Positions 1 to 33,262 of a stretch of 64,000 nt of DNA are shown in pieces. Both the position numbers and the translations under genes were made by a program. Origin of the DNA: a virus; the IMG/VR virus record IMGVR_UViG_3300032286_001377, positions 32,001 to 96,000 of that record. One strand, given 5' to 3'. Under the pieces are notes generated by a model. That model saw only the letters and a program-made list of their open reading frames with translations. It was not told the DNA's origin and ran no database searches. The first letter of the stretch is position 1. Every line of letters begins with the position of its first letter.

Positions 1-55
1 CCATTTCAGTAAAAATCTTTTCAAAGTCTTTATTTTCATTATTTTCGTTTGACAT
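1..55 (-). CDS. 5' end of a hypothetical protein running off the window (MSNENNENKDFEKIFTEM...)
   Basis: ATG at 53-55 (minus) preceded by AGGA a few nt upstream, immediately after the nrdJ stop; frame open to the window edge. Confidence 0.6.
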   Translation of the reverse strand, partial: MSNENNENKDFEKIFTEM

Positions 56-61
56 TTTTTC

Positions 62-2176
62 CTATTGTTTAGCGTTTTCTTTCACAAACTTTATTTCGCA
101 ACTATCTGTTGTACAGTAGTTTTCGCCAATTGCATCGGCTGCCAACCCAGCATACACTCCAGTAAGATCAATTGGAAGTATATTTAGAGAAATTTGATTA
201 TATTCTTCTTCTGAGATCTGAGTATACGGCATTTGGGGATATGTAAAGTTTCCCTGAGGTAAGAATGATACAGTCTTGAGTTGTCCATCATACATATGAA
301 GAACAGTTCCGACATGATCTTTTTCTGTTTCTGAATCAAACGAAATTGTTACAGACACCGAATTATCTGACCAGTATCTTTGTGCTGCAGCGGCTAAAGC
401 CATTTTCTCAAAGATTGTCACATCTTTCTCTGATCTAAGTGCATCAGATTTTATCGGAAAGAACACAACAGATGTTGTAGCAGGAGACTCTGATGCGGGC
501 TCCACTCTATAATTTGCCATTCTAAAGAGCGGTAACATTGGATCATCATTAGAGAATCTAATTGCTCTCATGAAGTATTGGCCACCAGGAGTCCAGTGAA
601 CACCAGGAGATTCTCCTGCAAGGATAGAAACGGTACCAGAAGGCTTTACCGTAGTTGTTTTAATTGACTCACGAATACCAAGCCATTCGGAATAGATATT
701 ATCATATCTTTGAACAGTTAAATAACCTTGATCTAGCCACTCTCTTAAAGTTGGCATGCCGACTCGATCTGCAAAGTTTGCGACACCAGAAACTGAAGTT
801 CCAATTCTTCTATTTCTTTGCATAATTGCATTTGTCTCCTCCCAGTGAGTAGGAAGAAGTGTCACAGTCTTAGCATATAAATAGGCAAACTTTAAAGTTC
901 TCTTAAAGTCATCTAAAGAATCATGTCTATTAAGATAAGTCTCCACTAGTGTGCAGCATTCGTAAGATTCTAGAGACTGCTCTGCGCAAGGATTATATCC
1001 AGCTACACGCCAATCTTTATTGTTTGGAGCATCAGCCAATCTTCCATACTTACGCGACATGTCCATCCAGATAACACCTGGTTCACCATTTCTAGCAATA
1101 CCATCAACTATCTCAGAAAGATCTGAACCAACAGAAACCTCTACTGAGTTATTTGACATCCAGCCCCAACCAGGAGAATTTGGATCGTATGAATTTCTCT
1201 CAGGAAAACGGTCAGCATTCTTAAGATTCAGGAAATTATCATCGTCCAATCTTCCAATAAGTAACTCTGCAGATCTGCGCACATTACCAGATACAACACA
1301 TACTCCAATCGTATTGCCAATATCTGCAATATCTACTCTAGTGAGCTTTTCTCCCGCTCTCCCATCAAACATCTTTCTAATATGATCATGAAGTTTAATC
1401 AGAGGATCTGCACCAGCGGCTGTGCCTCCAAAAGTTTTAATCGGAGTTCCAGCTGGACGAATTTCAGAATAGTCAAAAACAACTGGATTTTGATCAGGCT
1501 TCAAATATGAATTTATTAACTGAACAGTTGAGTTAACCCAGCCCTCACGAGAATCTTCTATATTCTCAACAATTGTGGGCCTACTTGATTCGTAGATGAC
1601 AAAATCTTTATCAGCACCTTTGTCATCAAACCCAACGCCAACACCCAACATCGATGCTTCCATAAGGAAACCAAATGGCTTAGCTGGATTATTTTTTGTC
1701 ATTTCAGCTGTACTTACAAAAGCACAATTCTGAAGTGCTGCAGAGTTCTTCTGAACCATAACAATTGGAGTTCCCATTACCCACAGTCCACGGCCAGGAG
1801 GAGTCCACTTAAGATTAAATAGACGATCAAAAGCCTCTCTTGCTGATGACTGAGCCTTGATATCATTCCAAGGTAATCTACTCTTTTTGCAATGCTCTTT
1901 TTGCAGAGAGTACATTCCGTTAATCACTCTCTCACAAACATCGACCCAAGTTTCTTTTGTGCCATCATCTTTTAATCTAGAATAGGTACGCAAAAATGTT
2001 ATTTCACCTACAGAGTTACCAGCTGCGTCAGCATAACCGAAGGGGCTTTTTTTGGTTCTATAAGAATCAACAAAGTCTTCATTCAATTTGAATACTGTTG
2101 CAGATGTTATCTTAAAATAGTTTGTACTCACTTTATCTGCAGAAATTGAAATACTACCGACATTGTTGTCATCCAT
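62..2176 (-). CDS. nrdJ: Class II (adenosylcobalamin-dependent) monomeric ribonucleoside-triphosphate reductase
   Basis: Motifs PPGRGLW, NCAF, GVGVGFD, VVSGNVRRSAE, NPCAEQ (thiyl Cys), CCTLVE, TTVKPSGTVS, SDNSVSVT and C-terminal Cys pair YCTTDSC; no intein-sized insertion. Confidence 0.95.
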   Translation of the reverse strand: MDDNNVGSISISADKVSTNYFKITSATVFKLNEDFVDSYRTKKSPFGYADAAGNSVGEITFLRTYSRLKDDGTKETWVDVCERVINGMYSLQKEHCKKSRLPWNDIKAQSSAREAFDRLFNLKWTPPGRGLWVMGTPIVMVQKNSAALQNCAFVSTAEMTKNNPAKPFGFLMEASMLGVGVGFDDKGADKDFVIYESSRPTIVENIEDSREGWVNSTVQLINSYLKPDQNPVVFDYSEIRPAGTPIKTFGGTAAGADPLIKLHDHIRKMFDGRAGEKLTRVDIADIGNTIGVCVVSGNVRRSAELLIGRLDDDNFLNLKNADRFPERNSYDPNSPGWGWMSNNSVEVSVGSDLSEIVDGIARNGEPGVIWMDMSRKYGRLADAPNNKDWRVAGYNPCAEQSLESYECCTLVETYLNRHDSLDDFKRTLKFAYLYAKTVTLLPTHWEETNAIMQRNRRIGTSVSGVANFADRVGMPTLREWLDQGYLTVQRYDNIYSEWLGIRESIKTTTVKPSGTVSILAGESPGVHWTPGGQYFMRAIRFSNDDPMLPLFRMANYRVEPASESPATTSVVFFPIKSDALRSEKDVTIFEKMALAAAAQRYWSDNSVSVTISFDSETEKDHVGTVLHMYDGQLKTVSFLPQGNFTYPQMPYTQISEEEYNQISLNILPIDLTGVYAGLAADAIGENYCTTDSCEIKFVKENAKQ

Positions 2177-4161: not shown

Positions 4162-5415
4162 TTAAATATATTCAATAATTAAATCACTCAAAACCGGAGG
4201 AGTTTTATCATCTAGCATATTTAAAGTAATTTCAATCCAAACAGCGTTTGATGCACCAGGGTTAGAAGTAGTATAAACACCAGCATCACTGTAAATCACC
4301 CTATAAGAAAATGCGGTTGACAAAAGACTCTGAGGAACATTGTAAATTTTTGGTGTAACATTAGTAATCTGAGAAATAACATCACCATTCGTTGGTGAAA
4401 ATTTAATAATAGTTTTACCAGAAGTCAAATATTTATCATATCTAATATCAAGATCAGATAGACCATAAGTATAAACATATTTGCTTAGCTCTTGGAAATA
4501 ATTTCTCTGTATAAATTTTATTCTGATAGCTGTTATATCTAACTCAGAAAAAACGAAAGCCAATGGAGGAGAATTTCTTATAGCATCTGCCGCAACAACA
4601 TCCCAGCCACCAGGGGGAACCTTTCCTATTGCAGATAATTCACCATCATAATATCCAAATCTGTTTAATGGAAGCCATCCATCGCCGGAGTTAAGACCAG
4701 GATTCTGCTTAGTGGTATATTCAACAGATAAAATATCGGTACCAAAAGTAGGGTATGGATTAAATTTAATCATATTAGTTTTTGCCGAACCGGATGACTC
4801 ATTCGGCACTTTTATATAAAGCCACATTTGAGCCCCTGCTGGAGAACTACTAGAGGAAATAATATTTCTTTTCCATATCTTCTCTGGTGAGTCCAATATC
4901 GCATTATAAATTGGAGTAGTATCAATTACTGCACCAGATGTGTCAACACCAGGAAGATTATTTTCAACCTTAGCTTTAAAGAAGTCAGGTATTATCTGTC
5001 CCGCATTGGCGCTAGAAAACTTTAATTTACTAAAAGAACTACTAGCAACTTTTGGTAAAGTAATAATATTATAAATAGGATCAAAACTTAAAAGATCTGT
5101 TGTAGAAACAGCAAAAGATGTATTCACAAAAGAAGAATAGTCTAACTGACTAAAAGAATGAATAGATATTACATTTGAAGCGGACTCTAAAGCTTGAATT
5201 CTGTCATCTAAATCTTTGATAGCTGCAGCAAGAAATTGGTGATCTTTTAATACTCTTTCAAAAGCTTGAGAAAGCTTATTATCAATGATATCACTCTTGT
5301 TATATAGATATACTAAATCTTTATAATTCTCTTCGATACGCGCATTGTAATCTGAGCTTTCTACTGGACCATTATATTGATAGTCTCGTTTTTTAGTATT
5401 TAAAATTTCACTCAT
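4162..5415 (-). CDS. Virion structural protein (fibre-like paralog family): N-terminal coiled coil plus beta-sandwich
   Basis: 417 aa; N-terminal GPVESSDYN...DL heptad region; YVYTYGL and C-terminal TPPVL motifs shared with the 713/734/877-aa neighbours. Confidence 0.65.
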   Translation of the reverse strand: MSEILNTKKRDYQYNGPVESSDYNARIEENYKDLVYLYNKSDIIDNKLSQAFERVLKDHQFLAAAIKDLDDRIQALESASNVISIHSFSQLDYSSFVNTSFAVSTTDLLSFDPIYNIITLPKVASSSFSKLKFSSANAGQIIPDFFKAKVENNLPGVDTSGAVIDTTPIYNAILDSPEKIWKRNIISSSSSPAGAQMWLYIKVPNESSGSAKTNMIKFNPYPTFGTDILSVEYTTKQNPGLNSGDGWLPLNRFGYYDGELSAIGKVPPGGWDVVAADAIRNSPPLAFVFSELDITAIRIKFIQRNYFQELSKYVYTYGLSDLDIRYDKYLTSGKTIIKFSPTNGDVISQITNVTPKIYNVPQSLLSTAFSYRVIYSDAGVYTTSNPGASNAVWIEITLNMLDDKTPPVLSDLIIEYI

Positions 5416-8400
5416 TTACAATCCACTCTCTAGTCTTTGTACTGTTTTAAGTATTCTAGCAAGTTGAGCACTCAATTTATTCATTGTATCAACTTTAACA
5501 ATAGTACCATTCAATTGGTAGTAATTAGCAATTTCCTGTATTTCATCTTGAGTTAAAGCTCTTCTCCAAATAGCAGCACCGAAGAACTCAAAATCAACTC
5601 CAGATGTAACATCAGATCTTGCCCCAACCCTTAAAGGATAAGAGTTGGCTAAAGATCCTACGGAAACATCGGTAGCTTTATTATCAAAAGTTCCATTAAC
5701 ATACACACTAAATGAATCAGAAGTTACATCATGAACAAAAATATAATTAGTCGCATTCTCGATAAAAGTTTTACTTGGAGTAGTAGTAGATCCGCCAACT
5801 TGACCTGAAAGGTTACCTTTAACATTCAACATAACAGAATTATCTGACGCATTAGTCATTATTTCATATCCGGGATTAGTTTGATTATCACCTTTACTGA
5901 GAAGTCTTGAGTATCCCGCTATATTATTCCAAAATCTAGCTGAAAAGAAAATTGTATAAGAATCTTTTATACCGAAATCTAGAAGAGAATTATCTGGAGT
6001 TTCTAACCAAGTGGTTCCACCACCCATCAATAGTGTTGGACGAGTAACAGCAACTGTTTTCTTATTAGTATTAGATCTAACAATAGCTCCTGCTTGAGTT
6101 GGATTAGCTGCATCTAAATAAAATACTGCCTCCTTCAAAAGTGCAGTAGAAGCGGCCGTTATTGTGCCAGAATAGTGAGCATTGATTAATGCTACCTCTG
6201 CTGTCGATAAAGCTTTTCTAAAAATAAGACCTGCATAGAATTCAAAGTCTTGATAGTTAGAAAGCGAAGCTCCACCATTCACGCCAATTCGGACAGTATT
6301 CCCATTGGACAAGTTTCCAATAGTTGTTGTAGGTGAAGTGGCGCTAAACGTATTGTTAGAAAATGTTTTAATTGTGTTATTAGATCTATTAACTATTCCA
6401 CCAAACACACTAAAGGCTCCAGCAGTTACTGCAGGTCCCGTCTGGTTAGCTGCATTAGTTCCATCTCCAATAAAAAATCCAGGACTTACAGATGTAGTAT
6501 CATTAGAAAGGCTCCATCCCTGAGCTGCTGCACCTCCGCCCTTGCAAATATATCTACCATAACTTGCAGCAGTCCCCCACTGCCTCACCACTGCTACAAC
6601 AGAAACAGATTCAGTGTAGCTGAAATCTAGATTAGCATTATCTGCTATTTCCATATAGCTATTAGAACCAAAGAGCCAACATGGACGGCAAACAGCTACT
6701 GTCTTTTTACCACTAGTTCCTCTAGTAATTGTTACCGTAATATTATTTGCTGACTCAGTAAAAGTAGATTGAACAGTAGAGGATAAACTGGTAGCAAAGT
6801 TAATATCAAAAACTTTTGTTCCGCCTATACCATTTCGCCAAATAGCTCTATAAAATTTACCTGCGGCTACAGTATTTGCATTTCCACCAATAACCACACC
6901 TGGAGATGATGCTAAAACCGGAAATGCAGTAACACCAAGCTGAGAAACAGTTGAACCTAATTGAACCCAAGAAGTCGGCTCTGTAGTCTGATCCTCTGCA
7001 TAATAAAACTTTAAATCATGTCCACCTAAACCATTATCGACATCTATAGTGACTTTAAGCCAATAAGCTTTGCCGTCAACAAAGTTTCCAGGGACAGTAG
7101 ATTCTCTTGCCATCAAAGTAGAGTTTGACCCAGTTGGAAACCATTTTAAAAGAAGCTTTCCAACACCTGTTACCATAAATGTAAAACCACGGTTAGGGTC
7201 AGTGGATTCTCTTTCTATCAAAGTATGATTTAAACCACTAGTCCAATCATCTATCGCAACCCTACAAACTAATTCCATATCACCAGTAACATTAAATGCG
7301 GCATTAAAAGCTACATCCGCACGATTACCTGAAACTCCTGGAATATATAAATAATTCTCACCCGTATGAGCCAACCATTTCGGATCCGTAGTTGATGTTG
7401 AATTTGCAGTAATAGCGGCAGTATTATCTGGACCAAAAGTTGCTCCTGGACGAGCATTTAAAACCGCTCCTCCAGAACCTAGATTTTGCAAGTATAATGG
7501 TTTATCAACGCTATTCTTTGTGACTGTAGGTAAATCTATTATTTTTTGAGATCCACTAGAAATTGCTTTAGTAAAATTAACATCAGAAACTGTAGCTCCA
7601 CCAATACCATTTCTGACAATAGTTCTAAATACTTTTCCAGCAAAAGGTCCAGTATTAGAGTTTACGTTTCCTATTCCATAGATTCCACCTATTTCGAGGA
7701 AACTTGTATTAGGAGAAATTGAAGTAATGTTTGCGGTAGTTACAGGACCACCTATTTGAGTCCAAACTGTTGGCTCATCAACTTGATCTTCAGCATAATA
7801 AAAGCATACATCATTTCCACCAGTGCCATTATCTACATCTACAGTAACTTTAATCCAATATGTAGTCTTATCCACAAATGGAGGTATAGATGGACTAGAT
7901 TTAGAAAGAAGTGAACCACCAGCACCATCGGGAGCAATTCTAACATTTAGTCTTCCTGTATCAAGAATAGATAACGCAAAAGATCTCTGATTAGCATAAG
8001 GTCCAGTTGCATGTGTATTATACTTACCAAAAAAATACTGCTCAGTTGCTGGCGTCCAATCATCCGCGGCAACCCTGCAAACAAATTCAATATCTCTATT
8101 TCTTTCAATGCGAGCATTATTTAAAATACCAACTGAATACGCATTAAAAGAAGACTCCATGAATGAAGAGCAGAATTGTAGCTGTCTAGTAAAGTTAACA
8201 TTTACTACTTCAGATCCACCTATCCCATTTTTAATAATAACATTAAAAATCTTACCGCTAAAGGCATCAGCTGCGCCGCTATAATATGCGCCTATCGCCA
8301 ACTGCTCAGAGTTTACACCAAGACTAATATTACCAGTGCTATTTCCTGATCCTGAAATAGTAGAACCTATTTGAATCCATGTAGTTGGCTCAGAAGGTTG

Positions 8401-11400
8401 ATCTGGTGCCCAATAGAACTTAGCATTGCAACCAGTAGTTAAATCTACAGTATCGATTGCAGCCCTAACCCAACAAGGCTTACCTAGTAAAACTCCAGCT
8501 GCAGCATATGTAACGTCTCCAGTTAGAGACGAAACAAGTGATCCATCAGAAAATCTAAAAACTGGAAAACCAGAATTATTTACGAATAACTGATAACCAC
8601 CCATAACAGATGAACCAGATCCTTTACTTACAAAAGCCTGGGAAGCAGCAAACGTATTAAATTGCACCCGTGCGCAAATATCAATATTTCTTTCTCTCTC
8701 AATTCTAGAACCAGAACCAACCATTGTTACAGTCATAGCATTAGATGAAGACTCTACAAAAGAGCTAGAGAACTGTATTAGTCTAGTAAAATCTACATCA
8801 AGTACTTTAGTTCCGTTTATGCCGTTTCTAACTATTGCTCTAAAATATCTCCCGCCCATAGGGGAATATAGTGATGGGGCACCATTTGTTCCAATACCAA
8901 TACCAAAGGGTTGTACACTGGTATTTAAATTTCCAGTAGTATTTCCAAAAGATGTACCAATAGTTATCCATTGTGCTGCTGTTGGCTCAGCTTCTTGATC
9001 TGGGCAATAATAGAATATAACATCACCAGAAGTTGCGTTTCTTGTCGCTTTTAACCAGAGTGGAGTACCACCAACTGTTGGCCTACCAGTAGTCCAGTTT
9101 ACTGATGCGAAAAAGTTTGTAAGACTCGTTGGCGTCAATCCAAGTGCTAATGCATTAGACGTAATATACCAGTAATATTGCTGTCCATATCCCTTACCCA
9201 TAAGAATAACCGGTGAAGATGGTGACCAAACTTTTGGCGCTATCTTACAAACAAGTTCTAAATCTCCAGTAATATTTAACGCAGCATTGTCTGGCAACGT
9301 GGCGTAATTATCATAACGGAAAGTCACAGTGGTAGCAGACATAGCTGCAAGTGTTCCATTATTAATTGTTACTGTTGTTCCAGAAAGATTAGTGATAAAA
9401 GTATTTTCTGCAATAAAACCAGTAGCCATAACGCGCTGGCCTATAAAAAGATTAGAACTGCTGGCTACAACAATTGTAGTAGCGCCTACTGTAGCCTGTG
9501 TAGCTGTAGTAGTGATGGTAGTCGCATCTTGATACATATATGTAGTTCCATCAACAATCCTTGCTGCAGAACCAGTAACTGAAACTACTTTACCAGTTGA
9601 TTCTGTGAAAGATGTGGTCCCAATTCCCACTGAACCAAAGTTTGCATTAAAAACTGTTGTTCCATTAATTCCATCTTTAACTATAGCGTTATAAAATTTT
9701 CCTGCAGACATTTGAGTACCGCCATTTACGCCACTGCCAATATAAAGATTAGCACTTGTAGGGTCTATCGTTGAAGCCGCACCAGGAGGACTTGTATTTA
9801 TAAGTGTCCATTGTGCAAGAGTTGGCTCTGCTGTTTGCGTTGAATAATAAAAGGATGCTTGGCTCGTAGCGACCGAAACTGCACATCTTAACCAACCAGC
9901 TTGACCATTCGTAAAAGGTGGTGCACCTGTAGCAGTGATCACTGTTTGTCCACCAGTAGTCCACCAAACAAATTCTGGAAATCCGCTCCCTGTATTGTTA
10001 ATACGGAAAGAGTAAGCTGCGCTACTAAGGCTCCTTTTTGCTACAAGACCTTGATAGTCTAATGAAGATTTCCAGTTATCTAATGCTACCCTAACAATAA
10101 TATCGATATCACCAGCAATATTTAATGTCGATACACTTGGCGTAGATGCATAATTTCCAGAAGTACCAGGAAGGCTCAAAAATTTACTACCCTCGGTACC
10201 TAAAATATCTAACTCGCAACTAGTTCCAATACCTTCATTACGAAAGTACATAGTCGTAGATGTGAAAGCGGCAATCGTGGGATTGCTAATTGTTATAGTC
10301 GTTCCAGAAACATTAGTGACAAAAGTATTATCAGGAATAGACCCACTCAATATCGCTCGTTGCCCGACGACAATTCCGGTTGCACTAGTTACAACAATTG
10401 TAGAAGAACCAACCGTAGCCTGAGTTCCTGTAGCTTGAATCAAACCATTAAATACGTCAGTTACATAAGCATAACTATTTGGACTAGTTAATCCAGATCC
10501 AAACATATAAGTTGATCCATCAACTATTTGAGCTGATTGAGAACTAAGAATTACAGAATGTCCAGTAGAGCTAGTAAAAGATCTAGCTCCAATAGCGGCT
10601 TTAGTAAAATCAACATCTAAAACTGTTGGTCCATCAATTCCATTTTTCAATATTCCACGATAGATTTTTCCAGCCATTCTTTCGCCACCGGAGTACCCTG
10701 CGCTTTGTGTACCTGCGCCGAAACCAACGATAAATCCAGATGCCGTTGCCGCACCAATGTATCCAACAGAAGATCCAATTGAAATCCAATTAGAAGGATA
10801 AGATGTACTATCTGGTGCATAATAAAATCTCACAATACCCGTACTAGCTTCACGTGTTACTCTTAACCAAACAGTTTGACCATCACTTGGCCTTCCTGCA
10901 GCTGTAGTCCAAGTTATACCAATAGACCTTAATGTGCCACCACCCATAAAGTAAAATCCAACATTAGACGAAGAGGCAGAAAGCCAAAATTCTCCAGCAT
11001 ATCCTTTGCTCATTATGATCTGATTAGCTGGATAAGAGTTCCAGTTATCTAATGCTACACGACAAATTACTTCAATATTACCAGTAATTTTTAGCTCTGG
11101 AGAATCTGGAACATAAGCATAAGAGAATCCTGGACCTCTTGCTACTGAGAGAAAATGTTCGCTTTCAACACCTAAAATATTTAGACTATCATCAAAAGGA
11201 ACAGAAGCGTAGTTACCAGAAATTCCTGGAGTATACAAATAGTTTTCGCCAGAATGACCTAATAATACTGGCGAACCATTATATGTTGCATTTAAAGCCG
11301 CACCTCCCCACCCCTTATTTTGCATAACCGTTTCTCCAACGGTAGATTTATCTACATCCAACCAATACACAGCGTCACTAAATACAGAAAGATCATCACG

Positions 11401-11685
11401 CATAAAAAGACTGACATCACTAACATCATAACTTAAACCATCATTCAATAATGATGCCGCAGTAATGTCATCTATGTCACCAATAAAAAGCTTGACATCT
11501 TCAAGGATAGAAGAATCAATAGAATCAAGTTGATTTTTAATTCTAGTCAAATCCAACTTTAAAAAATTTGTTTCAGCGTTCTCTAATTCACTACTTCTTG
11601 GTCCGCGATATTTCATTCTATTTACTTGGAAAAGTGGTTCTTTAAATCTTTCCACTTTATCTTGATTTGTAAATGTTTTTGACAT
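5416..11685 (-). CDS. Tail fibre/adhesin with multiple nested LamG/ConA-like domains
   Basis: 2089 aa; repeated LNITGD.E..CRVA.D.W ... NGI.G..V.DV.F units and LamG end motifs WRRALTQDEI and FRKALSTAEV; short coiled-coil termini. Confidence 0.8.
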   Translation of the reverse strand: MSKTFTNQDKVERFKEPLFQVNRMKYRGPRSSELENAETNFLKLDLTRIKNQLDSIDSSILEDVKLFIGDIDDITAASLLNDGLSYDVSDVSLFMRDDLSVFSDAVYWLDVDKSTVGETVMQNKGWGGAALNATYNGSPVLLGHSGENYLYTPGISGNYASVPFDDSLNILGVESEHFLSVARGPGFSYAYVPDSPELKITGNIEVICRVALDNWNSYPANQIIMSKGYAGEFWLSASSSNVGFYFMGGGTLRSIGITWTTAAGRPSDGQTVWLRVTREASTGIVRFYYAPDSTSYPSNWISIGSSVGYIGAATASGFIVGFGAGTQSAGYSGGERMAGKIYRGILKNGIDGPTVLDVDFTKAAIGARSFTSSTGHSVILSSQSAQIVDGSTYMFGSGLTSPNSYAYVTDVFNGLIQATGTQATVGSSTIVVTSATGIVVGQRAILSGSIPDNTFVTNVSGTTITISNPTIAAFTSTTMYFRNEGIGTSCELDILGTEGSKFLSLPGTSGNYASTPSVSTLNIAGDIDIIVRVALDNWKSSLDYQGLVAKRSLSSAAYSFRINNTGSGFPEFVWWTTGGQTVITATGAPPFTNGQAGWLRCAVSVATSQASFYYSTQTAEPTLAQWTLINTSPPGAASTIDPTSANLYIGSGVNGGTQMSAGKFYNAIVKDGINGTTVFNANFGSVGIGTTSFTESTGKVVSVTGSAARIVDGTTYMYQDATTITTTATQATVGATTIVVASSSNLFIGQRVMATGFIAENTFITNLSGTTVTINNGTLAAMSATTVTFRYDNYATLPDNAALNITGDLELVCKIAPKVWSPSSPVILMGKGYGQQYYWYITSNALALGLTPTSLTNFFASVNWTTGRPTVGGTPLWLKATRNATSGDVIFYYCPDQEAEPTAAQWITIGTSFGNTTGNLNTSVQPFGIGIGTNGAPSLYSPMGGRYFRAIVRNGINGTKVLDVDFTRLIQFSSSFVESSSNAMTVTMVGSGSRIERERNIDICARVQFNTFAASQAFVSKGSGSSVMGGYQLFVNNSGFPVFRFSDGSLVSSLTGDVTYAAAGVLLGKPCWVRAAIDTVDLTTGCNAKFYWAPDQPSEPTTWIQIGSTISGSGNSTGNISLGVNSEQLAIGAYYSGAADAFSGKIFNVIIKNGIGGSEVVNVNFTRQLQFCSSFMESSFNAYSVGILNNARIERNRDIEFVCRVAADDWTPATEQYFFGKYNTHATGPYANQRSFALSILDTGRLNVRIAPDGAGGSLLSKSSPSIPPFVDKTTYWIKVTVDVDNGTGGNDVCFYYAEDQVDEPTVWTQIGGPVTTANITSISPNTSFLEIGGIYGIGNVNSNTGPFAGKVFRTIVRNGIGGATVSDVNFTKAISSGSQKIIDLPTVTKNSVDKPLYLQNLGSGGAVLNARPGATFGPDNTAAITANSTSTTDPKWLAHTGENYLYIPGVSGNRADVAFNAAFNVTGDMELVCRVAIDDWTSGLNHTLIERESTDPNRGFTFMVTGVGKLLLKWFPTGSNSTLMARESTVPGNFVDGKAYWLKVTIDVDNGLGGHDLKFYYAEDQTTEPTSWVQLGSTVSQLGVTAFPVLASSPGVVIGGNANTVAAGKFYRAIWRNGIGGTKVFDINFATSLSSTVQSTFTESANNITVTITRGTSGKKTVAVCRPCWLFGSNSYMEIADNANLDFSYTESVSVVAVVRQWGTAASYGRYICKGGGAAAQGWSLSNDTTSVSPGFFIGDGTNAANQTGPAVTAGAFSVFGGIVNRSNNTIKTFSNNTFSATSPTTTIGNLSNGNTVRIGVNGGASLSNYQDFEFYAGLIFRKALSTAEVALINAHYSGTITAASTALLKEAVFYLDAANPTQAGAIVRSNTNKKTVAVTRPTLLMGGGTTWLETPDNSLLDFGIKDSYTIFFSARFWNNIAGYSRLLSKGDNQTNPGYEIMTNASDNSVMLNVKGNLSGQVGGSTTTPSKTFIENATNYIFVHDVTSDSFSVYVNGTFDNKATDVSVGSLANSYPLRVGARSDVTSGVDFEFFGAAIWRRALTQDEIQEIANYYQLNGTIVKVDTMNKLSAQLARILKTVQRLESGL

Positions 11686-11694
11686 TCTACCTCT

Positions 11695-16037: not shown

Positions 16038-16053
16038 TGAATTCCTATCCTAA

Positions 16054-18666: not shown

Positions 18667-18667
18667 A

Positions 18668-24176: not shown

Positions 24177-27100
24177 TTATTCTTCCCCAGAATCTGGACG
24201 TATATTGCTGTAATTAACTATATAATTTGGAGTAGTTCCAAAGAGTCCCATCTGATACTGTTGTAGTCTATTTAAAGGAACCCAAGATGGAGGAATCCAA
24301 TTTGGAGTACTGTTAACCGAGTAAACATCAATGCTATTATAATGCTTAACAACAAAATTTGGAGTAGCAATAGGATTAGAATTCAACTGCGTTGCTGGCA
24401 TAAAAGCCGAAGGCAATGCTGAAGCTTCGTTCGCATAGTGTATATTGTCATATTTTTCATTCCAATAAGCTATATCACCAGTTATAGTAATGTTAGAAGC
24501 CAAAACAGTTTCCCCTAATGCAGCCAGTTTTGTCTGTATCTGGTTTGCTGTTTCATTTATTTCAACGGAAACAAACCATATTCCTGGATCACTTGCATCG
24601 CTATAGCTATTTATAGTTTCAAAAATATTAAAATATCCATTTGAGTCAGTTTGAGTATACGAGTAGCTTGCAGTGTTGAAAAGGTCATAGAGAGTTCTAG
24701 CTTTTCTATATTTGATAGCAACAGAAGCCAATAGTGGATTATCTTTCCAATAAATTTTTCCAACTATTGCAAGCTTGCTAATTCCATCTGTATCTACAGT
24801 AAATCTAAGTGGAGCCGCTTTAACTTTAAGATCAAAGGTTTTATCACGTATAATCTTATATGTTAACTGCTGAGAATAGCCTTGAGTCATACTATTGGCC
24901 GAGCTATTAGGAGTGCTGTTGGATAGCCCATTGGGTGTAGCAGAGCCGATTCCAGAAATATTAATTGTTCCACTAGAAGTTGTTGACAATATAGAACCAT
25001 TATATCTAACAGTTGTTTTAGCAAAACCATTATCATTAGTTGTCACATAAGGATCTGCTACCAAAATATCATTGCCACTAATATAGAAAGTTTGACCTGG
25101 TTTTAAGTTTCCATTTGTATCATAAGAGATAATAGATAGGTACATTAAATCATTAGAGGAATCAGTAATAAAATTGGGAGACAGATAAGCGGAGATTGAA
25201 CTGAAATTGAACTCATCTTTGGTAAGATAAACATATCCTTCACTAATTGGTGAGTCAATCTGACTTAAATTCAATCCACTATCAATAAAGTTATCCTTAT
25301 ATGAATTCTCATAAGTCACATAATAATATGAATTAGTTGAAGGCGTTGTACTAAAGTACGCTTTGGACTGGTAGTCATCTATTGAACTATTATAAACATC
25401 ATTCTCAACGTAGAATGCATCATTCACATAATAAACAACTTCATATTCTCTATCTACAACAGATGGAGTTGCCTGACTAAAAGGCGAAATAACATTCGTA
25501 CTGGAAGATAAGTTGCTAAATAACCGCTTACCAGTATATACATCAGTGACTGAAGCATTCTTGATATTTTGGTAAGACAGATAAAGAGAATTACTCTTTC
25601 GACCCAAAACTGTTTCCGTATTATAGAATGATCCATTACCTGGAGTAGATGAGTCCTCGAATACAAGATTTCTATACTCCTTACCTCCAACATTAGCGAT
25701 AATGGGTGCACCTTTTCTTGGAGAATTTGGTAGAGTTAAATCAAAGAATCTTCCATTATATGTTGCTGTCTCAGGATTAACATAAATGTATTGATCTTTT
25801 TCCTTAATATAAATCCAACCAGCATTAACGCCTAATCTATAATCATTTCGTCTAACTTCATCTGCTTCTGAATATATATCAACTTCAACATTATTTAAGT
25901 CACTATCACCCAAACTAGGAACTATACCATCTACCAGATATTCTTTAACTATTTTAATTTCTTGATCAGTTAAAACTCTTCTCCATATTGCCACGGCAGC
26001 CAATTCCATATCAGCATATCCTGAGTTGTTATAATACTGAGAGCCAATAGTCAGAGGAGTGTTACTGCTTAAAGTCCCTATAGTTGAGTCTGTAGCAGGG
26101 ACGCCCATTGTTGTATTAGCGTAAACATAGGTAGTGTCTTTTGAAACATTTCTTATACCAGTATGTGCCATTAGTGACCCAGCAACATAACCTGGGTTAG
26201 ATGCCCCTCCAGAACCACCTGCGCCTGATACGAAGTTTAGAGCAGCTACGCCAGTGTTTGCTTTAGAGAGGTAGTATCCACCAGTCGGATCCCACTTCAT
26301 AATAAAGCGTTGATCTGTTGCAGGCACTGACCAAGATCTTGCTACAGCCATAAGTGTAAATGAATCATTTAAACCGAAGTTCACAAGGTCATTATTGGGA
26401 ATAATAAAATAATCTGCCGCACCAGCGTCTGCGCCAAAAATCCAAACAGATCTACCACCATTAGCCTTAGATGGCATAACTACCATTCTACGACCAGTAG
26501 TTCCTCTATTCATAGTTACTAATTGGCCGGTATTGCAAGTAAAACTAACCTGTGCCGGATAAGTGATTGAATCAAAGTCAACATCTAAAACTGGATTACC
26601 AGCAAAAGAATCTGTATTCCAAATTTTTGCCCGATAATACTTTCCCTCAGGTCCAGCTAAGCCCGTATTAGAAGCTGCTATATAATTAAACGCAGCGTTC
26701 GAACGCAAAGACAATGCCGTACCACCAGGGTTAGCTGTTACAACAGTATCAAAAAGTGTCCAGTTTACGCCATCTAATGAAGTATAAAATTTCACGGTAT
26801 GCTGGAAAGTTGTATTGTTTATTGTGAGGGTAGCGCCAAACCACGCCTTAGTTCCAATTGGAATATTATGACCCTTAGTGGCGTAAACTAAACGAGAAGT
26901 TGTATCCGCACTAGAGGTGTAAGAGAAAAACATATTAGGACCAGGGGGTGTGCCTCCATTAAATCCTATTGAGTAGTTAGTAACCGAACTATCTACGCCC
27001 GATTGTCTCTTTCCTATAAGAGCTTTAGGACTAGCTACATATGTCTCAAAAGGTCTAATCTGCACGGCTAATGCAATATTGCCAGTAATATCAGTAGACG

Positions 27101-30100
27101 ACCCCACTGCTGATGGTATTGTGGCACCATTAGTGCCAGCTGAGATACTAGGTTGATAGAAATACCCTTTGTCCTCAACATCCAATAAGGTTGGATCAGT
27201 GTTAATCACATTGGTGCCATTAATCGTTACGACACTCTTATATATTGAATCTTCATTGAACTCAATTGTCCAATCTTTTTGCTTAGAAAAATCTGCATCA
27301 AAGACGGTAGGACCACCAATTCCGCCACGAATAATGACTCTATACAAAGAGCCATTAATTACACCGGCACCGCTGTCACGAGATCCAATTTCCAAATTAC
27401 CCGTTGATGCAGGTAACGAAACTGTTGGATTTAAAGTTGTTGTTCCAACTAATATCCAAGAATTCGGCTCTAAATCTTGACTTGAATAATTAGCATAAAA
27501 ATTAACAATACCTGTACTTCTAACTCTAGTAATTTTTATCCACTGAGTTTTTCCAGCGATGATAGCTCCACTATATGTATCTATCTCTGACCAAAAACTT
27601 CCAGTCCAATATCCAAATTTAACCTTACTAGGATCTGGATTAGCAAGAAGGACCCTATATGCTCCACTCTTTGAGAGAATGCTAACATCTGAAGTTAATG
27701 TATTTAAGTTTAATTTGAAAACTATTTCAATATCACCAGTAACATCAAGTCCATTATGATCATAAACACCTGCATAGTTGGATGTAATTCCAGGAAGATT
27801 AAGTGCACCATTTCGAATATGTGCTGAGCCAACATAAGACATAGAGCCAACCTGTGCGTCTAATACTGTGCCACCAGTACCAAGGTTGCTTATCATCTGA
27901 GCATTAAATGAAGCCGACTTAGCGTCTAGGTAGAGGACCGCATCTTTAAGTGGCGTAACCTTATGGCTCAATGAATTAGGATCTGCGGCAAAAGCTGTAT
28001 TCAAATCAGAAACAATTGCATCATTGCTATAGGTAAAAGAATCTATATAGTTAGGTGTAGTATTGAATTTAACCGAATCTACAATATAAGGAGTTGCAGC
28101 AGCTAGACCAAATGAGTTTCTATTTAAAGTAACTGTTTCTAAAAATTTATCTTCCAACAAGAATGAATTATTATATTCTTCCTCGTTCTTAAATACTCTA
28201 TTATTTTCGTCCAAGAAACCATAGAAGGTATTAGGTGCGGTTTCTGCTTCAAAATGTTCATAATTAGTTCTAACAAAAGGATATAAAACGCTATCTTTTG
28301 TATAGACATCAATATAATAAGGAGTAGATGAGAAGTTGATAGTAGCTTGATCAAAATAATCAGGACTTGCACTAACAGCTCCAGATAGATTACGAGGCTG
28401 CCATAAAATATTTGGAGAAGAAGGCACCAAATAGGTATCATCACTAATCGGATCTGTCGAATAGCCACCAGTAGCCTCAACATTTGAAGAGCTACCATAT
28501 GTAGGATATGATTTAATTTTATTAGGAGAAATAAATAAATACTGCGGAGTCGCCTTTTGATGCTTTAAAACTGTTTGCTTAACAAGTTCTTCTATTTGAA
28601 TAAGCGCATTAGAAACTCCGCCAACATTTAAAGTATTTGGAGTATTTAAAGCAATAGTGCCTTTATAAGTGTCAGAATTAAAAGACGCCTGCTTAGTTAC
28701 GTAAACATTTGAACCTAAATACAGACCCGCATTATATCTATCCAGATTAGGGGTAGACAAAGTCATCGTTGTACCAATTGTTGGATTAGATTTCCATATA
28801 GGTGTAGAACGACTAAAGTCTATCTTATAATTACCAACTGAAAGATTAGTATATGTTGGACTAACGCCTGTTGTAGTTAATGACCTTCCAAAAATAACAT
28901 TAATTGAAGCGGCCTCTGCAATATTAATGCTATTCTGCTTAGAAGTCCTTGTTGAATTGTAGTATCTCTGATTGAAAACCTTATCCCTGAATTCTAATTC
29001 AGCCAAAGTCATCCCTTGCTGATCAAATATTGGGATATAAGTGTACTCAGGGCTTGTTGGACTATTGGAAAGAAATTGATTACCTACAATAAAATCACTT
29101 CTATTATTATAGTTTAAATTTGCATAGAATGTAGATGGTGTAGCATAGTTGCCGTGGTTAGGCATGCTGATCTCATACACGACACCTGCTTGAACCTTTG
29201 ACGAATCATAATCTGCAACTGTAGCAAGATAATTGAAATACCAAGTATAATCTACTACTACTGGAGCATAAATTGTATTCGTGCTAATTGCTTTAAATCC
29301 AGAAATTTTAATGTTTCCAGAAAAAGAAACGGTTGAAGCTTCAGCTGGATATATGTCCACCATCGCATCATCAAAGTCTCCAACTCCAGGCTGATAAAAT
29401 GAACCCAATGGACTTGAAGCCTCATCATATACAGCTGGAATTCGAGAAACGCCCTCGCCATTTAACCCGGCATAATCCCAAAGTCCTTCATCCCACTTTA
29501 CATAGCCAATGTTAGATGGATATTTAAAGTTGAGATCTTCAACTAACTGTCTGAACTGCTGGGTGGGTTGTCCTGCATCAGTGAAATATGGTGTAGAGTT
29601 TTCAATATCTGATATCTCTAATATTTCTGGAGTCGCACCTGAGTAATCTGAATTTGGAGTAGCGCCATATGCTCTCCAAATGTCTAACTCTCGCCGCAGA
29701 GTACGCTTAAGAGCCTCATTTGATACCCCCGGCATATTTTTAGTTACATCTAAAATCCTTTTCTTATAATTAGAGTTAGATTCTAAATAAAGTCTTGGCA
29801 AGCTGACTCTTGCGCCAAACTCGTCAAAGTCATTAAAAATATTAATTGCTTCTTGGGTATATGAAATATCATTGACTTTAAGAGATGAAAACTGACGAAG
29901 AGTAAAAAGCTGTCTATCAACAGGACTATAATAGAAAGAATAATCGGTTGATCTACCATCCATTAGATCTGCGAAAGATCCAACCCTGGCAAGCTGGACA
30001 CTATCTCCTGATATTAAATTTATATTTTGAGGCACATTATATGCAACAAACATCCACGCAGTCATATCTTCATCTGCGCTAGCTATAAAAGAATCAATTG

Positions 30101-30851
30101 AATTTAATTCAACATCTGACTGATAATCGTCAAGACTTTCTTGTAGAATTGCAGTCAAAAACTTTCCACCAACAGACTGTGGAATAGCTAAAGAAGGAGT
30201 AGCAGGTTCGACAGAATCTTCAAAGATAGAAGTCCAGCTCGGAAATCTTTTTAATACGCTTCTAACAGAAGAGGAAATAACAGGTGAAACTGGATCATAA
30301 ATTCCAACTTCTAAATAGAACAATAAACCAACTGAACTTAAATCAACATCTTGAGTAAAAATCTCTAGTTCAATCTTAACAAACGGTTTTGCATTCTTGA
30401 TAAAAACAATATTAGAATCTGAAGAAACAGAAGATCTTAACCAGGGTCCAGCACTTGAATCGGATTCATAAAAGCTTATAGTAAAAGAAGGAACAATCAC
30501 ACCTGGAAGATTAGTGAAAGTATGACGATATGTAAGAATATCTATCCTGGAAGTAGTGTCAATAAATCTTCTCAATGAAGGAGTAGCTGGTTCGTAAATA
30601 ACCTCACCAACATCTGTCTTATGAGTAACATTAGAACTATACGGAGTTGCATGAATTCCAGTGTAAGACGGTGAAGTTACTTCAGTCCCAACATATGTTC
30701 TATCCCCTATAAGATTAAGACCATAAGCTGATCTGCTATAGGAATAGTTTTTAAATTGTGAATTTGAATATAGGTTAATAGGATTACTAGTCCAAATATT
30801 ATTTGATTTACTAAAATCTGAACTTTTAAGCAGTAATAAATATTGCTTCAT
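24177..30851 (-). CDS. Giant baseplate wedge/fibre protein with inserted LamG cassette and Ig-like domains
   Basis: 2224 aa; FDEFGARVSLPRLYLESNSNYKKRI resembles the D..G...L.R..ES...Y..RI wedge motif; LamG block at ~25930-27950; Ig-like YDTNGN...TNDNGFA near the C-terminus. Confidence 0.65.
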   Translation of the reverse strand: MKQYLLLLKSSDFSKSNNIWTSNPINLYSNSQFKNYSYSRSAYGLNLIGDRTYVGTEVTSPSYTGIHATPYSSNVTHKTDVGEVIYEPATPSLRRFIDTTSRIDILTYRHTFTNLPGVIVPSFTISFYESDSSAGPWLRSSVSSDSNIVFIKNAKPFVKIELEIFTQDVDLSSVGLLFYLEVGIYDPVSPVISSSVRSVLKRFPSWTSIFEDSVEPATPSLAIPQSVGGKFLTAILQESLDDYQSDVELNSIDSFIASADEDMTAWMFVAYNVPQNINLISGDSVQLARVGSFADLMDGRSTDYSFYYSPVDRQLFTLRQFSSLKVNDISYTQEAINIFNDFDEFGARVSLPRLYLESNSNYKKRILDVTKNMPGVSNEALKRTLRRELDIWRAYGATPNSDYSGATPEILEISDIENSTPYFTDAGQPTQQFRQLVEDLNFKYPSNIGYVKWDEGLWDYAGLNGEGVSRIPAVYDEASSPLGSFYQPGVGDFDDAMVDIYPAEASTVSFSGNIKISGFKAISTNTIYAPVVVDYTWYFNYLATVADYDSSKVQAGVVYEISMPNHGNYATPSTFYANLNYNNRSDFIVGNQFLSNSPTSPEYTYIPIFDQQGMTLAELEFRDKVFNQRYYNSTRTSKQNSINIAEAASINVIFGRSLTTTGVSPTYTNLSVGNYKIDFSRSTPIWKSNPTIGTTMTLSTPNLDRYNAGLYLGSNVYVTKQASFNSDTYKGTIALNTPNTLNVGGVSNALIQIEELVKQTVLKHQKATPQYLFISPNKIKSYPTYGSSSNVEATGGYSTDPISDDTYLVPSSPNILWQPRNLSGAVSASPDYFDQATINFSSTPYYIDVYTKDSVLYPFVRTNYEHFEAETAPNTFYGFLDENNRVFKNEEEYNNSFLLEDKFLETVTLNRNSFGLAAATPYIVDSVKFNTTPNYIDSFTYSNDAIVSDLNTAFAADPNSLSHKVTPLKDAVLYLDAKSASFNAQMISNLGTGGTVLDAQVGSMSYVGSAHIRNGALNLPGITSNYAGVYDHNGLDVTGDIEIVFKLNLNTLTSDVSILSKSGAYRVLLANPDPSKVKFGYWTGSFWSEIDTYSGAIIAGKTQWIKITRVRSTGIVNFYANYSSQDLEPNSWILVGTTTLNPTVSLPASTGNLEIGSRDSGAGVINGSLYRVIIRGGIGGPTVFDADFSKQKDWTIEFNEDSIYKSVVTINGTNVINTDPTLLDVEDKGYFYQPSISAGTNGATIPSAVGSSTDITGNIALAVQIRPFETYVASPKALIGKRQSGVDSSVTNYSIGFNGGTPPGPNMFFSYTSSADTTSRLVYATKGHNIPIGTKAWFGATLTINNTTFQHTVKFYTSLDGVNWTLFDTVVTANPGGTALSLRSNAAFNYIAASNTGLAGPEGKYYRAKIWNTDSFAGNPVLDVDFDSITYPAQVSFTCNTGQLVTMNRGTTGRRMVVMPSKANGGRSVWIFGADAGAADYFIIPNNDLVNFGLNDSFTLMAVARSWSVPATDQRFIMKWDPTGGYYLSKANTGVAALNFVSGAGGSGGASNPGYVAGSLMAHTGIRNVSKDTTYVYANTTMGVPATDSTIGTLSSNTPLTIGSQYYNNSGYADMELAAVAIWRRVLTDQEIKIVKEYLVDGIVPSLGDSDLNNVEVDIYSEADEVRRNDYRLGVNAGWIYIKEKDQYIYVNPETATYNGRFFDLTLPNSPRKGAPIIANVGGKEYRNLVFEDSSTPGNGSFYNTETVLGRKSNSLYLSYQNIKNASVTDVYTGKRLFSNLSSSTNVISPFSQATPSVVDREYEVVYYVNDAFYVENDVYNSSIDDYQSKAYFSTTPSTNSYYYVTYENSYKDNFIDSGLNLSQIDSPISEGYVYLTKDEFNFSSISAYLSPNFITDSSNDLMYLSIISYDTNGNLKPGQTFYISGNDILVADPYVTTNDNGFAKTTVRYNGSILSTTSSGTINISGIGSATPNGLSNSTPNSSANSMTQGYSQQLTYKIIRDKTFDLKVKAAPLRFTVDTDGISKLAIVGKIYWKDNPLLASVAIKYRKARTLYDLFNTASYSYTQTDSNGYFNIFETINSYSDASDPGIWFVSVEINETANQIQTKLAALGETVLASNITITGDIAYWNEKYDNIHYANEASALPSAFMPATQLNSNPIATPNFVVKHYNSIDVYSVNSTPNWIPPSWVPLNRLQQYQMGLFGTTPNYIVNYSNIRPDSGEE

Positions 30852-32092: not shown

Positions 32093-33262
32093 TCAGTAGT
32101 TAGATGTACCTATTATAACAGCATAAATGTTAACATTTCCAGCTGCAGCATAACGTTTTACAGTATTTAAATCAAAATCTTTAAGTGGCAGCTCTCCGCC
32201 ATCTGCGTTGAAGCCGCTTATAGTAACATTTCTAATTAGATCAGAAGAAAGCTTTATCTGTTGTTCGATAGTGGCAATAGAAACAACATCTCCAATTGAT
32301 AAAGAATTTAGATATCTTTTAACAAAAAGTTCCGCTTGTCTTCTTACTCCAGTTATCATATTGGTTGTATTTCCACTTGGAACAGTAATAGTAGCTGAAA
32401 GGTTTATCGACACCTTTTCAGCTATGCGAACATTAAATCTCACACCAACTGGCTTAACTGCATAAATAGCAGAAAGTATTGCTTCTGGCAAAGGGCGGAG
32501 AGCAACAGAAGCTTCCGGCACAACAATAATATCGCAAGAGCCTATACCATAGCTTGCTTCTCTAATCCTAACATCTCTTACGCCCTTAACTGCCAGGGCA
32601 GCAAAGCGAATAGATTCTGCAGTTCCTGCTGATTTAGATTTAAGTGAAGCGATAATTCTTCTGCGATAGTTTGAATCAGACTCAGAATTAGGGTCAGCAT
32701 AAATTTCTTTTGGATTTGAACAGAAAACTACAACAGCAGATGGCCCAATATAATTATGTTTAGTTAAACTGCCAACTGGAGCAACGTAAGAATTATCGGT
32801 AAAATTAGGCTCAACCCTTCCATAAGCCTTAAGCGTACCTGCTGTTATAACAATGGGTCCAGAAAGCTTAAAACTGTATTGCCTTATTGTGAAAGCTGAA
32901 ACATCAGTATATATTAAAGTATCTTTTGGAATAGTTATATCTGTACTATGAACTTTATCTAGAAAAAATTCAATATTATAAGATTGTCTCTCTTGAGAAA
33001 CTACAGATGTAACAGATTTTCTTGGTATGCCATAAAGATCTCCAATTAAATCTAAATTTCTACCCATTGCAGTACTAAGATTATTTTGATTAATAGAATA
33101 TCTCAGAGCCTCATATAGGTCAGAAACTTCTGAACTAAATGCTTCTGCAAAAGCTCTAGCAATAGAACCAGGATGAGTAGCAGTGATGCCTGCATTTTTT
33201 TCTAGATTATTAAGAACAGAAACTAAAACATCTGACTTACTTTTAACTCCATAGACTGGCAA
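32093..33262 (-). CDS. Baseplate J-like (P2 gpJ/Mu gp47) wedge protein
   Basis: TAMGRNLDLIG, ESDSNYRRRI, GTAESIRFAALAVKGVRDV; TTG start with AGGAG RBS; follows the gp25-like gene. Confidence 0.85.
   Translation of the reverse strand: MPVYGVKSKSDVLVSVLNNLEKNAGITATHPGSIARAFAEAFSSEVSDLYEALRYSINQNNLSTAMGRNLDLIGDLYGIPRKSVTSVVSQERQSYNIEFFLDKVHSTDITIPKDTLIYTDVSAFTIRQYSFKLSGPIVITAGTLKAYGRVEPNFTDNSYVAPVGSLTKHNYIGPSAVVVFCSNPKEIYADPNSESDSNYRRRIIASLKSKSAGTAESIRFAALAVKGVRDVRIREASYGIGSCDIIVVPEASVALRPLPEAILSAIYAVKPVGVRFNVRIAEKVSINLSATITVPSGNTTNMITGVRRQAELFVKRYLNSLSIGDVVSIATIEQQIKLSSDLIRNVTISGFNADGGELPLKDFDLNTVKRYAAAGNVNIYAVIIGTSNY

Follow-up and report, generated by a model that had tools for sequence, protein, structure and literature searches.

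Recursively nested laminin G-like jelly rolls predicted in a 2089-residue phage protein

The Si3 region of the cyanobacterial RNA polymerase beta' subunit consists of sandwich-barrel hybrid motifs (SBHM) that are nested recursively, up to six levels deep (PMC10895346, PMC13114784), and a survey of insertion architectures found that inserts are usually smaller than their hosts. In siphophages, the 'evolved' Dit and Tal proteins carry carbohydrate-binding modules (CBMs) inserted in their loops (PMC6669499, PMC7533335). Here we describe P0001, a protein of 2089 amino acids (aa) encoded by a single open reading frame (ORF; 5416..11685, minus strand) in a window of 64,000 nucleotides that comprises bases 32001–96000 of a 115.5-kb viral contig from IMG/VR (IMGVR_UViG_3300032286_001377, ~55% complete by estimate). 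Nucleotide positions below are those of the window, and all parts of P0001 lie on the minus strand. P0001 contains eight LamG/pentraxin-like jelly rolls, six of type B and two of type A (Pfam Laminin_G_3), plus two small beta domains (S1 and S2). We consider it likely, with a probability of about 0.8, that P0001 is a virion protein of ~130 aa carrying a cluster of nested jelly rolls, 1,959 aa long, at a single permissive point, and that the nesting order is as follows: the host protein encloses A8, which encloses B1 and A7; B1 encloses B2 and B3; B3 encloses S1, B4 and B5; B5 encloses S2; and A7 encloses B6.

As in Si3, a fold is inserted into loops of its own copies over several levels and the discontinuous domains are still predicted to close; unlike Si3, which has the SBHM fold and belongs to a cellular enzyme, P0001 is built of LamG jelly rolls and is a putative virion protein. 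Whereas the surveyed inserts are usually the smaller partner, the insert here dwarfs its host fifteenfold (1,959 aa in 130 aa). P0001 resembles the evolved Dit and Tal proteins in the gain of lectin modules by in-loop insertion into structural proteins, with slots that are empty or filled in relatives. However, the Dit and Tal insertions are single-level, with an unrelated CBM in a structural fold, whereas P0001 comes from a myovirus-like jumbo phage and exhibits recursive nesting of one and the same fold. Its A domains are like the Laminin_G_3/ConA-like lectins of phage tails and adhesins (PF13385), A8 being above the Pfam cut-off and A7 being paralogous, but those domains are usually contiguous and in tandem, whereas in P0001 whole domains stand between the body and its N-terminal hairpin and edge strand. 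Along their entire length, the B units can be superposed on pentraxins and LNS/LamG domains (PTX3, SAP, CRP and neurexin LNS; Z 17–19, root-mean-square deviation (rmsd) 2.5–3.4 Å, 170–185 residues), but with a sequence identity of 7–17% and no Pfam match the likeness is one of fold only. Our literature searches brought up no description of nested LamG domains in proteins of phages. The nesting principle itself is already known; what sets P0001 apart is a nesting depth of roughly five levels, an insert 15 times the size of its host, clean empty-slot controls and its phage context.

Segment order and the split B domains

Self-BLAST of P0001 revealed six B-type and two A-type repeats. For searches with hidden Markov models (HMMs) the B unit was divided into three segments: head N (YL..PG..NYA..P...LNI.G), body C (D.E..CRV ... 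GK.YR.IV.NGI.G) and tail P (V.DV.F, SF.ES, ..V.V., A.IV). The two methods agree on the six B and two A repeats recognized in the initial annotation of this DNA, which a model had made from the letters alone. N heads were detected at aa 147–172, 176–202, 500–525, 782–807 and 1443–1468 (E 1e-8 to 1e-15), and C bodies starting at aa 203, 526, 808, 1000, 1198 and 1469 (E 1e-37 to 1e-57), with a P segment after each. Denoted by their first residues, the segments run N147, N176, C203, P355, (N393), S418, N500, C526, P678, S726/N782, C808, P961, C1000, P1160, C1198 and then N1443, C1469, P1625, A1689 and A1905. Two heads lack an adjoining body (aa 147–172 and aa 393–417/488–495), and two headless bodies (aa 998–1195 and 1196–1391) directly follow a P segment with no spacer. 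Read as brackets, this order is properly nested. The two interrupted B domains are broken at the same loop, between L[ND]ILG and D.E..CRV, as had been noted before, and the heads lie ~600 and ~1,020 residues upstream of their bodies. When spliced in silico, B1 (147–172 + 1196–1391) and B3 (393–417 + 998–1195) align end to end with B2, B4, B5 and B6 at 26–44% identity, and the spliced B1 is closest to the contiguous B6 (44%).

The outer split domain, B1, begins with the head strands N1 (aa 147–172; 11170..11247; E 9e-15) and resumes with its body and tail strands at aa 1196–1391 (7513..8100). Directly after N1 stands B2, a complete inserted jelly roll (aa 173–392; 10510..11169) delimited by self-BLAST, HMMs and the splicing alignment. 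The head strands of B3, N3, occupy aa 393–417 (10435..10509; strands predicted at 392–397 and 405–408), and the closing ELDILG of this head stands at aa 488–495 (10201–10224); in the orthologues P0003 and P0004, N3 is joined to LNILG. What separates the two parts in P0001 is S1 (aa 418–487; 10225..10434), which is missing as a clean 66-aa gap in both orthologues. The headless body of B3 with its tail strands (aa 998–1195; 8101..8694) directly follows the segment P4. Within B3 lie B4, a complete jelly roll at the innermost level (aa 496–715; 9541..10200), and B5 (aa 716–997; 8695..9540). S2, a repeat of S1, is placed between the first two strands of B5 (aa 728–791; 9313–9504). The initial annotation overlooked S1 and S2 (~66 aa each) as well as the 130-aa host protein, but its nucleotide landmarks are accurate to within a few bases (end of N1 at 11170, body of B1 at ~8100, end of ELDILG at 10201, body of B3 at ~8694, second A unit with B6 at ~7512–6109).

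The segment HMMs were used to scan 47 homologues, 1191–3086 aa long and almost all metagenomic. Orphan heads and headless bodies are exactly balanced and nested in 26 of the 36 homologues that have any. Nine of the other ten have surplus headless bodies, and P0009, which is truncated at its N-terminus, has a surplus of one head; the surplus bodies are those whose heads the HMM missed, as with N3 interrupted by S1. The module N(NCP)(NCP)C recurs in a 1330-aa family and in P0006, P0008, P0009, P0030 and P0045, and in the 1330-aa family the counterpart of the headless B3 body is contiguous. Deeper nests are present in P0019, P0023 and P0041, and purely sequential forms in P0015, P0032 and P0034.

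Structure predictions bear on both split domains. A complex prediction of aa 100–176 with aa 1160–1440 scored 0.70, against 0.00 for the best of three controls, and at least 38% of contacts agreed between runs (partner predicted local distance difference test (pLDDT) at least 38); of 80 solved complexes 58 attain the score mark used, as do 2 of 110 mismatched pairs, a calibration that is rough since the alignment was custom-made. The confident interface is predicted between N1 (aa 147–164 and 167–172) and the start (1197–1199), last strands (1323–1353) and tail region around VSDVNF (1366–1375) of the B1 body, the tightest pairs being YLYT (149–152) with GKVF (1350–1353); residues 100–146 take no part in it. 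This is the split of B1, with its head far from its body, that had been proposed. As the fragments are two pieces of a jelly roll, the pass may stem from likeness to solved LamG folds, and the predicted complex speaks for complementarity of N1 and the B1 body rather than for binding in the cell. The conservation rate of N1 also tracks the B1 body and not the adjacent B2 (p 0.007 in P0004).

For the interior, an AlphaFold2 (AF2) model of aa 355–1200 (846 residues) has a pLDDT of 86.6 and a predicted template modelling score (pTM) of 0.82. Both kinds of unit, B and A, are two-sheet jelly rolls in the AF2 models, superposing with Z 15–19 on solved chains of LamG, pentraxin and CBM40. With VIA-align, entire pentraxin and LamG chains fall on model residues 145..358–362, which correspond to B4 including its tail strands (Z 17–19); CRP (1lj7_H) runs over model residues 359..644, that is, B5 across S2, with 174 residues aligned; and the tailspike lectin domain 5w6p_A covers model residues 35..823, corresponding to N3 plus the B3 body (Z 13.1, rmsd 3.5 Å, 181 residues aligned). 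Together with the segment grammar, the pTM and the last of these rows agree with the earlier claim that B3 encloses B4 and B5. The host pieces of B1 and B3, and likewise those of A7, are modelled as one fold each.

A pTM of 0.82 over 846 residues argues for a fixed cluster and not beads on a string, in keeping with the branched lectin cluster first suggested. The word 'fibre' then applied to P0001 is unsupported: Pfam and PHROGs searches of the protein gave no fibre family, and the AF2 models are compact (pTM 0.70–0.82). Giant phage 'fibre' genes that are read as strings of lectin repeats can be closed, branched clusters, which affects annotation, the splitting of domains for prediction, and engineering. 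We also considered a P-N-C parsing, in which the tail strands V.DV.F start the next domain and the last three domains are sequential with no wrap. It was rejected, because pentraxin chains run through the tails of B4, VSDVNF (1366–1371) takes part in the B1 complex, and the VIA-align ranges build A7 across B6.

The A domains and the host protein

The unit A7 starts with the hairpin H2 (LQNLGSGGAVLNA) and a linker (aa 1392–1440; 7366..7512; pLDDT 89), is interrupted by the complete jelly roll B6 (aa 1441–1665; 6691..7365), and continues with its body (aa 1666–1851) and a C-terminal edge strand, EAVFYLDA, whose position is now corrected to aa 1852–1859 (together 6109..6690). The AF2 model of aa 1393–2089 (pLDDT 84.7, pTM 0.70) yielded three classes of single-domain VIA-align rows: B6 (model residues 47–52..272–280), A7 (~17 rows, model residues 1–6..444–473, 182–196 residues aligned at ~3 Å) and A8 (model residues 481–492..661–670, beginning only at KKTVAV/TLLMGGG). 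A7 is built from the hairpin (1396–1413) and the body, to which several rows add the strand FYLD (1855–1858). Rows spanning model residues 274..466–473 indicate that EAVFYLDA belongs to A7, and the conservation rate of aa 1852–1874 follows A7, not A8 (p 0.0015 in P0003). That A7 encloses B6 and has this strand after its body thus agrees with what was first seen. The circular permutation proposed on this ground holds in part: EAVFYLDA does stand at the C-terminal side of A7, but only one edge strand is concerned.

The A8 body (aa 1875–2056; 5518..6063) contains the only Pfam match of P0001, to Laminin_G_3 (PF13385; aa 1889–2050, 32.8 bits versus a gathering threshold of 27.6, E 9e-8). The match is limited to A8, to which A7 is linked by BLAST (E 6e-13). 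The N-terminal piece of A8 is probably P1 (aa 105–146; 11248..11373), an edge strand (AVYWLD) and a hairpin (QNKGWGGAALNA) that are homologous to the corresponding pieces of A7 and lie outside the B1 interface; a contact of aa 105–135 with the A8 body would follow. The number of hairpins bears on this assignment. Detected with an HMM (NLG.GG..L.A), they equal the A domains in number and are nested wherever detection is complete, in the patterns (()), ((())), ((()())) and ()(), so that the P0001 hairpin at 118 should pair with A1905. Across the homologues hairpins never outnumber A domains, and the six proteins with B domains and no A domain lack them altogether. The notion that the hairpin is an N-terminal extension of a top-level B was discarded, as hairpins are missing from B-only proteins and as P0006 combines four hairpins and four A domains with five top-level B units.

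A search for short relatives with aa 1–118 recovered ten distinct proteins of 129–135 aa. Their residues 1–103 are 55–60% identical to aa 1–104 of P0001, a conserved, anchor-like N-terminal part (11374..11685), and their residues 104–129 are 50–58% identical to aa 2063–2088, within the C-terminal helix tail (aa 2063–2089 plus stop; 5416..5499). The two end modules co-occur in exactly seven of 48 homologues. Furthermore, a 135-aa gene is located at the same locus in a syntenic viral contig of 55.8 kb (L010; IMGVR_UViG_3300047564_005519, 9001–9408), and its product corresponds to aa 1–104 joined directly to aa 2063–2088 of P0001. The gene order there is homologues of the 1835-, 877-, 734- and 713-aa genes, the 135-aa gene, the 417- and 207-aa genes and later the ribonucleotide reductase, at 47–90% identity (90% for the reductase); the 135-aa gene overlaps both its neighbours, its start lying in the end of a 712-aa gene and its own end reaching into the start of a 421-aa gene. 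By sequence and synteny, the 2089-aa gene is the positional orthologue of the 130-aa gene, enlarged by an insertion of 1,959 aa at a single point.

If the cluster is one single-point insertion and the host fold survives, residues 105 and 2062 must be neighbours. Such a neighbourhood is expected if the first strand and hairpin close A8, which supports the outermost closure and adds a level. The four nesting levels originally counted stand as to recursive in-loop insertion, but the number is about five, the host protein adding an outer level. Among orthologues sharing the ends, which are 1882 to 3086 aa long, the interior varies greatly, and attachment to the virion seems to be the role of the conserved ends. 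The empty-slot form (130 aa) and the filled forms are a natural before-and-after pair, in which a virion protein grows more than tenfold with its ends untouched.

Alternative readings and the proposed mode of growth

The nested-cluster explanation rests directly on segment order, indels, synteny and structure predictions consistent with strand complementation; glycan binding, the position of P0001 on the virion and the packing of aa 105–135 against A8 we infer. Several points weigh against it. The partner pLDDT in the complex prediction is low (39–47), and predictions from fragments do not separate cis from trans complementation. VIA-align ranges give the first and last aligned residues only, so that stray residues are possible, and domain membership was read from them. 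For B3 the structural evidence is thin, a single VIA-align row plus the grammar. The B unit reaches no Pfam family above threshold, which bears on lectin function, and the conservation of P1 (53–56%, versus 39–43% for A8) is uninformative, neutral at best.

The last of these points belongs to an alternative in which the nesting of the B domains and of B6 in A7 is real, but aa 105–146 are part of the host fold or a flexible leader and A8 lacks those strands. P1 is indeed more conserved than A8, a fragment model of A8 is confident without P1, and the 1330-aa family, which begins at the hairpin and ends right after the A helix, demonstrates that an A domain can be without the edge strand. We nevertheless regard this reading as unlikely, since hairpin and A counts match, B-only proteins have no hairpins, A7 uses a homologous hairpin and strand, and single-point insertion requires residues 105 and 2062 to adjoin. 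A different possibility is 3D domain swapping, in which the orphan heads of one subunit of an oligomer would complement, in trans, the headless bodies of another. The complex prediction, run on separate fragments, fits cis or trans alike, and the host module has coiled-coil-like helices, a weak point. This is improbable, however: the single-chain AF2 model of aa 355–1200 closes B3 in cis at a pTM of 0.82, the inserts are joined to the host loops with no spare linker (172/173 and 1195/1196), and proper nesting of the brackets, a necessity for cis closure but not for trans swapping, holds without exception.

Hardly credible, finally, is a plain string of domains, with the extra heads as dead leftovers of recombination and the headless bodies folding alone. 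The history is hard to read, because DNA repeats at the junctions are old, diverged copies only; these copies of conserved motifs are 60–83% identical, long exact repeats are absent, and there is no sign of recent or active recombination. On the other hand, the orphan heads are conserved as much as their inferred bodies, match the headless bodies in number and order across dozens of homologues, and are predicted as paired strands.

Growth of the nested cluster may be pictured as follows. B domains would be opened at the loop between the two head strands and the body (LNI.G / D.E..CRV), and A domains after the N-terminal hairpin. As the first and last strands of an inserted unit adjoin, it would enter and leave the host loop at one spot, so that the host domain still closes; neighbouring first and last strands would allow a unit to drop into a loop, and repetition would make a nest. 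Both ends of the host protein may be required for incorporation into the virion, in which case binding domains could be added only internally, and repeated insertion would give a compact, branched, doubly tethered, multivalent lectin head for glycans of the host surface, the interior of which turns over between related phages while the ends stay. The cluster is probably a compact host-binding head of this kind. The two insertion-tolerant LamG loops might serve for domain-insertion engineering or phage retargeting, and a second protein of the phage has a comparable slot.

Related cassettes and genomic setting

The second protein is of baseplate type, 2224 aa long (ORF 24177..30851, minus strand), and includes a related cassette of ~700 aa (aa 958–1656; 25884..27980, minus strand), made up of edge strand, hairpin, B, B and A, as recognized in the HMM scan. 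Dozens of its relatives, ~1520 aa long (1508–1545 aa), are without the cassette, with the flanks joined. It is possible, if doubtful, that LamG cassettes with self-closing ends are a general plug-in system of this phage lineage, pasted at single permissive points into no fewer than two virion proteins that are unrelated, one of 130 aa and the other the baseplate protein of 1520 aa, and recursively into their own loops. The depth of nesting would in that case be a record of successive acquisitions, and a swap of the interior, with the virion-binding ends fixed, would retarget host range. The boldest form of this idea would be a dedicated recombination mechanism at conserved junction motifs.

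The gene of P0001 itself stands in a series of large structural genes on the minus strand, which includes a baseplate wedge gene at 32093..33262, and neighbours of P0001 match PHROGs annotated as 'virion structural protein'. P0001 matches PHROG family 5313, of unknown function, in six stretches, and its BFVD neighbours are ConA-like proteins from uncultured phages. Searches of the B unit, the S domain, the N-module and the short orthologues gave no Pfam or PHROGs match above threshold, the 135-aa orthologue had no usable match in the ESM Atlas, and Megablast of phage records produced no match. The nearby ribonucleotide reductase is 80% identical to its homologue in the lake metagenome phage DSL-LC01.

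A further observation concerns the N-terminal ~50 residues of the 130-aa host protein and P0001, which are weakly similar to the N-terminus of phrog_19670 (E 0.002), the family of the adjacent 417-aa protein. Judging from these residues, the structural genes at 4162–18687 (minus strand) may share an attachment motif.

The S domain of ~66 aa, without a Pfam match, occurs in its two copies (aa 418–487 and 728–791) at different points of the B3 and B5 heads. In the family of the 2224-aa protein, P0030 and P0048 have other B cassettes in the slot used by the cassette described above, and in P0067, P0112 and P0113 additional residues are present at a second site, near aa 552. The last three also carry PF07603, PF02018 and PF14312, respectively. 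In a third paralogue of the same phage, P0040 (1197 aa), encoded outside the window at ~99.6–101.5 kb, a split B encloses two B units, and A domain and hairpin are both lacking.

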